A stretch of DNA of 64,000 nt from Escherichia coli 042 (GTDB lineage: Bacteria > Pseudomonadota > Gammaproteobacteria > Enterobacterales > Enterobacteriaceae): the NCBI RefSeq assembly GCF_000027125.1, contig NC_017626.1; one strand, given 5' to 3'. Position numbers and translations under genes: made by a program. The notes under the pieces are model-generated. The model searched no databases. It saw only the letters and a list, made by a program, of their open reading frames with translations, and was not told the DNA's origin. Positions 52,421 to 52,610 of this stretch are shown in pieces; the first letter of the stretch is position 1; the number at the start of each line of letters is the position of its first letter.

Positions 52421-52610
52421 GCCTGATAAGACGCACAAGCGTCGCATCAGGCAACCAGTGCCGGATGCGGCGTGAACGCCTTATCCGGCCTACAAAAGAA
52501 ATGCAGAAATCGTAGGCCTGATAAGACGCGCAAGCGTCGCATCAGGCAAACAGCGCCGGATGCGGCGTGAATGCCTTATCCGGCCTACAAAAGAAATGCA
52601 GGAAATCTTT
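52421..52610. repeat. Tandemly duplicated BIME (two units of about 95 bp, four REP palindromes) between sdhB and sucA
   Basis: Unit GCCTGATAAGACGC(A/G)CAAGCGTCGCATCAGGCAA(C/A)CAG(T/C)GCCGGATGCGGCGTGAA(C/T)GCCTTATCCGGCCTACAAAAGAAATGCAG occurs twice head-to-tail. Confidence 0.85.

Follow-up and report, generated by a model that had tools for sequence, protein, structure and literature searches.

Strain-variable tandem REP arrays of the atypical BIME class in the sdhB–sucA and sucB–sucC spacers of Escherichia coli

The spacer between sdhB and sucA in Escherichia coli 042 contains a tandem duplication rich in palindromes, and a related array lies in the spacer between sucB and sucC. These repeats raise the questions of what class of element they belong to, how old and how variable they are, and what they might do between the genes of an operon of central metabolism. 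We addressed these questions in a stretch of 64,000 nt from contig NC_017626.1, referred to here as the window, to which all coordinates refer unless stated otherwise.

The sdhB–sucA spacer is 349 nt long and separates sdhB (51698–52414, plus strand, stop codon TAA at 52412–52414) from sucA (52764–55565, plus strand), both of which were assigned from the open reading frame list and from the annotation of matching RefSeq genomes. The array occupies the first half of this spacer. Tandem Repeats Finder described 52419–52607 as 2.0 copies with a period of 95, 94% matches, 1% indels, and a score of 343, and a repeat search found two 91-nt copies (52419–52509 and 52514–52604) of 95% identity, each unit with two imperfect palindromes. 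The head-to-tail arrangement of approximately 95-nt units with two REPs each, as given in a preliminary description of this DNA, therefore stands, but the duplication is not exact as had been stated there, the match being 94%. In the mRNA sense, each unit consists of GTAG, a 32-nt GCCTGAT-type palindrome, a 7-nt linker, a GCCGGAT-type palindrome followed by CTAC, and a tail. Unit 1 (52419–52513, plus strand) comprises a Z1-type REP palindrome (52421–52452) with CCAG (52417–52420) as the degenerate form of its GTAG foot, the 7-nt S-type linker AACCAGT (52453–52459), a Y-type REP (52460–52489) with CTAC at 52490–52493, and the 18-nt tail linker AAAAGAAATGCAGAAATC (52494–52511). Unit 2 (52514–52607, plus strand) comprises GTAG (52512–52515), a Z1-type REP (52516–52547), the linker AAACAGC (52548–52554), a Y-type REP (52555–52584) with CTAC at 52585–52588, and the tail AAAAGAAATGCAGGAAATC (52589–52607). 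Both units were delimited by Tandem Repeats Finder, the repeat search, a scan for REP tails, and the Rfam model naRNA4, which matches the minus strand at 52420–52490 (86.8 bits) and at 52515–52585 (79.6 bits). Four substitutions separate the two units in the REP-pair core, and the linker tail differs further, including one indel. Because the 18–19-nt non-REP tail AAAAGAAATGCAGRAAATC that ends each unit belongs to the repeat, the duplicated block is a REP pair together with its flank and not two separate REP insertions.

The second array lies in the 274-nt spacer between sucB (odhB; 55580–56797, plus strand, stop codon TAG at 56795–56797) and sucC (57072–58238, plus strand), as given by the open reading frame list and the RefSeq annotation. 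The repeat search found two units of approximately 90 nt here (56811–56989) that are 78% identical. Unit 1 (56811–56899, plus strand), also seen in the REP tail scan, consists of a degenerate Y-type REP with a 5' GTAG (56820–56853), a short linker, and a Z1-type REP (56861–56892) with CTAC at 56893–56896, and unit 2 (56901–56989, plus strand) consists of GTAG (56910–56913), a Y-variant REP (56914–56943), a short linker, and a Z1-type REP (56951–56982) with CTAC at 56983–56986. REP tails are located at 56820–56833, 56883–56896, 56910–56923, and 56973–56986, the first of them degenerate with two mismatches; the array had previously been counted as one of three REPs, a number that must be corrected to four as the degenerate first copy was overlooked. 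The order within the units is inverted relative to the first site, with Y preceding Z1 at sucB–sucC and Z1 preceding Y at sdhB–sucA, and naRNA4 therefore matches the plus strand at sucB–sucC (56823–56893 with 53.7 bits, which is under the gathering score, and 56913–56983 with 76.5 bits) and the minus strand at sdhB–sucA. Outer inverted-repeat arms ACTGTAGACCGGAT and ATTCGGTCTACGGT (56817–56830 and 57021–57034, plus strand) bracket the whole array (56817–57034). The array thus sits between arms GTAGACCG...CGGTCTAC, and in REP-less strains, which have 93-nt alleles, the same arms close a simple hairpin with a 10 bp stem and an 11-nt loop.

That both spacers contain REP/BIME arrays, as first proposed, was confirmed by Tandem Repeats Finder, by motif counts, and by naRNA4. 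The REP tail motif CTTATCMGGCCTAC (two mismatches or fewer) occurs 15 times in the window compared with an expectation of 0.48, and none of 100 shuffled sequences reached 15; four of these tails are found at each of the two sites, alternating in strand (-,+,-,+). naRNA4 (RF02564) is a REP-pair family with a gathering score of 59.5 bits, and three of the four units reach this score while no other place in the window does. The eight imperfect palindromes are 30–32 nt long, and seven of them have the GTAG/CTAC foot, the exception being the first Z1 REP with CCAG. They belong to a dispersed and extragenic family: both arrays lie between open reading frames, and a 751-nt query that includes the array matches a median of at least 37 places per E. 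coli genome. In keeping with BIMEs, the REPs alternate in strand and are repeated in tandem with a period of 95 nt at sdhB–sucA and approximately 90 nt at sucB–sucC. The GCCTGAT-type REPs of the window are all of the long 32-nt form; the only short form seen, of 25 nt, is the third REP in the K-12 sdhB–sucA allele. Both size classes are directly visible, and we take the long form to be Z1 and the short form to be Z2 on the basis of their consensus sequences. With Z1 and Y combined across a short linker, two tandem copies per site, and a copy number that varies among strains, the sdhB–sucA and sucB–sucC arrays are atypical BIMEs by the published classification, in which atypical BIMEs are chimeras present in multiple copies whose tandem number differs among strains (Ton-Hoang et al., PMC3333891).

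Other elements were also noted in the window. Further REPs or REP pairs are located at 4719–4732, 8291–8353, 23987–24049, and 24659–24696, and the pair at 8291–8353 overlaps a match to Rfam ES036 (CssrF) at 8305–8347. Seven tRNA genes are packed into approximately 700 nt on the minus strand (4845–5546), and identical Rfam scores for some pairs of them suggest duplicated genes.

The variability of the arrays was surveyed in complete E. coli genomes, 5,425 of 5,426 of which were matched by the 751-nt spacer-spanning query with spans of 751, 762/763, 702, 602, and other lengths. Five lengths of the sdhB–sucA spacer were seen: 200 nt without REPs and with the hairpin GCCGGGGAAATCCCCCGGC (O22:H8), 300 nt with Z1-Y-Z2, which is one unit with an added short REP (K-12), 349 nt with two units (the window), 361 nt with two units and a variant leader (ST131), and 455 nt with three units (EC444 and EC8). 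The sucB–sucC spacer was seen at 93 nt, at 274 nt with two units (the window and K-12), at 365 nt with three units, and at 261 nt as a REP-bearing variant. The expectation that copy number would be strain-variable was thus borne out by several spacer lengths at both sites, which contradict an identical copy number in all strains. Because the genome collection is skewed to clinical isolates, the following percentages are not population frequencies: allele-specific queries assigned the REP-less sdhB–sucA allele to 1,764 genomes (32.5% of 5,425) and a true unit-to-unit junction to approximately 1,475 (~27%), with a junction identical to that of the window in 375 (6.9%) and a near-identical one in approximately 1,100 more, and the remaining ~40% of genomes are K-12-like (Z1-Y-Z2). 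Three-unit alleles account for approximately 5–7% in systematic samples, with which the counts from the allele-specific queries are consistent. At sucB–sucC, REPs are present in 2,021 genomes (37%) and the rest (63%) have the 93-nt REP-less spacer.

The two sites vary independently and combine into at least seven haplotypes. REPs are absent from both sites in O22:H8, and 1008S13 combines a REP-less sdhB–sucA spacer with three units at sucB–sucC. The Z1-Y-Z2 allele at sdhB–sucA is found with no REPs at sucB–sucC in O157:H7 and with two units in K-12; two units at sdhB–sucA are likewise found with no REPs in ST131 and with two units in the window and 118UI. Finally, EC444 and S1-KEN carry three units at sdhB–sucA and the 261-nt variant at sucB–sucC. 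Within lineages (K-12 derivatives, O157:H7, and ST131), small samples each contained one allele.

The duplication at sdhB–sucA had been taken to be recent, a view that does not agree with the comparison of alleles, as the two units differ in the same way in ST131 and in three-unit alleles. Over 92 of 92 positions, unit 2 of the window is identical to its ST131 counterpart and to unit 3 of EC444; unit 1 is identical at 94–95 of 95 positions across alleles (94 of 95 for the window and ST131), and the positions that distinguish units 1 and 2 are the same in every allele compared. Because these differences are common to distant lineages, the duplication predates their divergence and is old and inherited. 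The extra unit of the three-unit allele differs from its neighbor by only 1 nt in 95 and is, therefore, younger. Copy number would probably change when the direct repeats recombine unequally or slip during replication, or alternatively by strand transfer through the REP-associated transposase TnpA_REP, which recombines BIMEs in vitro (PMC3333891); in either case, such events would be rare enough for alleles to follow lineages. Comparison of the alleles found no target-site duplication or clear remnant connecting alleles that have the hairpin with those that have REPs.

A single scan of species-representative genomes using the start of sucB as a pattern yielded 78 Enterobacterales loci, with E. 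coli, E. fergusonii, and Salmonella not among them. The loci recovered from E. albertii and E. whittamii are truncated just upstream of sucB, which leaves sdhB–sucA with no Escherichia outgroup, so that the ancestral state is addressable for sucB–sucC only. At this site E. albertii has a 261-nt and E. whittamii a 274-nt allele, both with four REPs, and the sucB–sucC array is, therefore, older than E. coli. The 93-nt allele probably represents either a derived state or an alternative old one. We also observed that the 261-nt allele of the three-unit strains EC444 and S1-KEN-07-A equals the E. albertii form in length, four-REP layout, and shortened fourth REP, a similarity that suggests either an old divergent haplotype or introgression of the sdh–suc region. 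In more distant genera, the sucB–sucC position is occupied by a single REP or by a Y+Z1 pair in Klebsiella, Raoultella, and Kluyvera intermedia. At sdhB–sucA, REP pairs are found in Klebsiella and Raoultella, and in Kluyvera ascorbata and K. georgiana a Y+Z2 pair precedes the same tail that K-12 has. A plain GC-rich hairpin occupies the sdhB–sucA position in Kluyvera sichuanensis, Photorhabdus, Serratia, Yersinia, and others.

What is constant across these alleles is a hairpin close to the upstream stop codon. Among the E. coli alleles and the other Enterobacterales, a hairpin at least as stable as -12 kcal/mol starts no more than 45 nt from the sdhB stop codon in all 36 sdhB–sucA spacers, compared with 16 of 36 shuffled spacers, and the median for this stop-proximal hairpin is -20.4 compared with -11.0 in the shuffles; the same test at sucB–sucC gave 54 of 60 compared with 31 of 60, the shuffles in each case preserving mononucleotide content only. 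REP-less alleles carry GCCGGGGAAATCCCCCGGC or GTAGACCGAC...GTCGGTCTAC in the position of the REPs. REPs and a simple hairpin appear to be interchangeable at the stop-proximal position.

Downstream of the variable REP zone of sdhB–sucA, the sucA leader contains structures of its own. The fixed downstream edge of that zone is an AU-rich stem-loop with arms AATCTTTAAAAACTG and CAGTTTTTAAAGGTT (52604–52648, plus strand), which was found as an inverted repeat, is predicted in the folds of all alleles, and shows covariation; the conserved sequence GGTTCCTT follows it, and two more hairpins precede the sucA start. Among Enterobacterales, 9 of its 15 pairs have changed on both sides with a covariation score of 0.32 compared with 0.19 in shuffles (none of the 500 reached the observed score, and controls with a slid partner gave 0.15 or less), a count that is somewhat biased by picking the register of the 5' arm for best complementarity although the arms are visibly homologous. 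The length of its loop ranges from approximately 1 to approximately 140 nt, and the stem-loop has no match in Rfam. It is distinct from the REP array and may be a site for RNase III or a regulator. Of the two further hairpins, that at 52653–52682 varies among E. coli alleles through a compensatory pair: the window and K-12 have GCGAGC/GCTCGC, and ST131 and the three-unit alleles have GCGGAC/GTCCGC. The hairpin at 52695–52714 keeps its stem with a loop that is 8 nt longer in ST131. An insert of approximately 130 nt containing GAGCATAGTGAACTATGTGACCGGGG is present in the leader hairpin loop at six loci from Klebsiella, Raoultella, and Enterobacter, and similar inserts are found in the sucB–sucC spacers of three Serratia and Photorhabdus loci. 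These inserts presumably resemble the ERIC/IRU repeat, as judged by the ERIC consensus.

As RNA, both regions are predicted to be strongly structured. The mRNA-sense sequence of 52405–52770 has a minimum free energy of -153 kcal/mol (z = -9.3 relative to shuffled sequences) and that of 56790–57080 one of -118.7 kcal/mol (z = -6.9), and in alternative optimal folds neighboring REPs are predicted to pair into duplexes of approximately 30 bp. Scans with simple consensus patterns found neither an intrinsic-terminator-like site nor a sigma-70-like promoter in either spacer, the internal suc promoter being unrecognizable by such a consensus; we accordingly set aside the arrays as classical terminators. 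Our preferred reading, which we hold with reasonable though far from complete confidence, is that the arrays form a transcribed structural block that would act as an attenuator and a protector of the upstream mRNA and serve as a substrate for RNase III. Transcribed within the approximately 10-kb sdhCDAB-sucABCD operon mRNA, they would fold into stacked stem-loops, either as individual REP hairpins or as a long duplex between adjacent REPs. Such stem-loops would stop 3'-to-5' exonucleases, thereby stabilizing the upstream sdhCDAB or sucAB segment after a downstream cut or termination; they would also attenuate read-through in a partly Rho-dependent manner and supply double-stranded RNA to RNase III, and these combined effects would help to determine in what proportion the three enzyme complexes are produced. 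We infer from this an effect of the arrays on the sdh:suc expression ratio. REPs as such are dispensable, because they are absent from one-third of the genomes at sdhB–sucA and from nearly two-thirds at sucB–sucC.

Published work on REPs inside operons agrees with the roles of mRNA stabilizer or partial terminator that had been suggested for these arrays in the preliminary description, and the literature also favors a function of structured RNA between these genes. Internal termination, an extra promoter, and processing by RNase III/E have been reported between sdhB and sucA (PMC6393394; PMC9731577), stable 3' ends coincide with BIMEs in Term-seq data (PMC9023263), and stem-loops without U-tracts keep PNPase and RNase II from degrading Rho-terminated transcripts (PMC6061677). 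The REP325 array inside the yjdMN operon is a partly Rho-dependent attenuator as well as a stabilizer of the upstream mRNA, and REP effects are context-dependent, with mRNA half-life not uniformly changed (bioRxiv 10.64898/2026.03.23.713779). A known RNase III site labeled "P67/sucA" is listed at position 758515 of NC_000913.3 with approximately 0–1 reads in the wild type compared with 305 in the rnc mutant (PMC5371410), the position being a peak of a coverage ratio in repeated sequence where multi-mapping among REPs could alter the value. This coordinate maps to the center of the short third REP of K-12 and not to the leader hairpin at 52604–52648, which we had first assumed to be the site. 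Given the limited resolution, both the third REP and the leader hairpin are possible as the RNase III site.

Among the alternatives to a transcribed structural block, the one that survives best is that the arrays are neutral selfish repeats in permissive spacers with no effect on expression, the hairpin of the REP-less alleles being the sole functional element or there being none. REP-less alleles are common at both sites (32.5% and 63%), the haplotypes, at least seven in number, assort independently with no favored combination apparent, and REPs are tied to a domesticated transposase able to amplify them (PMC3333891). Against neutrality, however, every allele and genus that was examined has a stable stem-loop in the corresponding place, which argues that the position is constrained, and REPs provide this stem-loop where the plain hairpin is absent. 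REP arrays, moreover, persist at these sites beyond E. coli, in E. albertii, E. whittamii, Klebsiella, Raoultella, and Kluyvera, and deletion of a comparable intra-operon array altered the expression of both neighboring genes (bioRxiv 10.64898/2026.03.23.713779). On balance we regard neutrality as possible but somewhat unlikely.

It is also conceivable, if quite unlikely in our estimate, that the stop-proximal REP tunes translation of sdhB, a stem 3–6 nt past the stop codon stalling the terminating ribosome and leading through trans-translation to less SdhB. Liang, Rudd and Deutscher (Mol Cell 2015) reportedly found that REPs within approximately 15 nt of a stop codon lower expression by ribosome stalling and trans-translation, and the first REP stem starts 6 nt from the sdhB stop codon in the window and 3 nt from it in K-12 and ST131. 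The hairpin of the REP-less allele, however, also lies within 15 nt of the stop codon (+13), so that an effect on translation would not separate the alleles. Such tuning is, furthermore, inapplicable at sucB–sucC, where the first REP stem is more than 20 nt from the sucB stop codon, and it leaves the tandem copies unexplained.

A role at the level of DNA, in which binding and cleavage by DNA gyrase or naRNA4 together with HU would relieve supercoiling or organize the chromosome near a highly transcribed operon, seems to us very unlikely. The units do match naRNA4 above its gathering score. On the other hand, the gyrase work of Espeli & Boccard in 1997 is said to have dealt with BIME-2 (Y+Z2), and the units here are Y+Z1; the L linker that carries the IHF site of BIME-1 is also absent, the linkers being 7–8 nt long. 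Binding of gyrase, IHF, and Pol I is listed among the properties of REPs and BIMEs (PMC3333891). REP325, however, showed no nucleoid compaction, no REP–REP contacts, and a very low RNA level in the study that disputes the function of naRNA4 as a discrete HU-binding, nucleoid-condensing small RNA (bioRxiv 10.64898/2026.03.23.713779). Finally, although tandem repeats of approximately 95 nt are open to mis-assembly from short reads, the possibility that the duplication reflects an assembly error, or a very recent slippage event confined to this strain, is negligible and was rejected, because the identical 751-nt region is present at 100% in two independent complete genomes, the exact or near-identical junction recurs in the genomes counted above, and fixed diagnostic differences between the units are common to several lineages.

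The arrays are, in sum, real and ordinary, and their element type, variability, and likely role are already known. REPs adjoining sdh/suc genes, the BIME classes, variation in BIME number, and roles in stabilization and attenuation are textbook matter or recently published: the number of BIMEs at a locus differs among E. coli strains, with earlier polymorphism work cited (PMC3333891), and REP locations are strain-variable and may tune expression (bioRxiv 10.64898/2026.03.23.713779). A literature search found no specific direct statement on REPs at sdhB/sucB. In practical terms, the sites provide two length-polymorphic markers with at least five alleles at sdhB–sucA and at least four at sucB–sucC. 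They also form a natural allelic series in a central-metabolism operon (no REPs, one unit plus Z2, two units, and three units) that is usable to relate unit number to upstream mRNA stability and downstream read-through. More speculatively, and we consider this unlikely, unit number at both sites might be a heritable cis-regulatory dial for lineage-specific ratios of succinate dehydrogenase, 2-oxoglutarate dehydrogenase, and succinyl-CoA synthetase, the haplotypes being kept by niche-specific selection on TCA-cycle flux. If this were true, the two sites would be a selected regulatory allelic series, and it is the sole reading with some novelty.

Compared with known systems, the arrays most closely resemble the atypical BIMEs of the scheme of Bachellier, Gilson and Hofnung (PMC3333891), with which they share inversely oriented Z1 and Y, an S-type linker, tandem repetition, an extragenic location, and a strain-variable number. 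There is no essential difference, apart from the missing GTAG foot of the first Z1 in the window and the degenerate first Y at sucB–sucC. BIME-1 has Z1 and Y in common with the arrays of the window, but it is present in a single copy with a long conserved L linker that includes an IHF site, whereas the paired REPs here are 7–8 nt apart and the units are in tandem; BIME-2, defined by Z2 and Y, a short linker, and tandem repetition (PMC3333891), shares its linker length, tandem arrangement, and variable copy number with them. This gyrase-associated class, however, uses the short Z2 whereas the units in the window have the long Z1, and Z2 is found only in the K-12-type sdhB–sucA allele.

With regard to function, the REPs between malE and malF lie, like the sdh–suc arrays, between cistrons of one operon, although the operon and the REP composition differ. 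According to the work of Newbury et al. in 1987, the malE-malF REPs reportedly shield the mRNA upstream of them against 3'-5' exonucleases and lead to differential expression. The REP325/naRNA4 array between yjdM and yjdN (PMC4550694; bioRxiv 10.64898/2026.03.23.713779) is likewise made of tandem two-palindrome units inside an operon, and the Rfam naRNA4 model that the units of the window match was built from it. REP325 has six units rather than the two found at each sdh–suc site, and its operon and flanking context differ; its dual role was shown experimentally, whereas for the sdh–suc arrays we propose the same mechanism.
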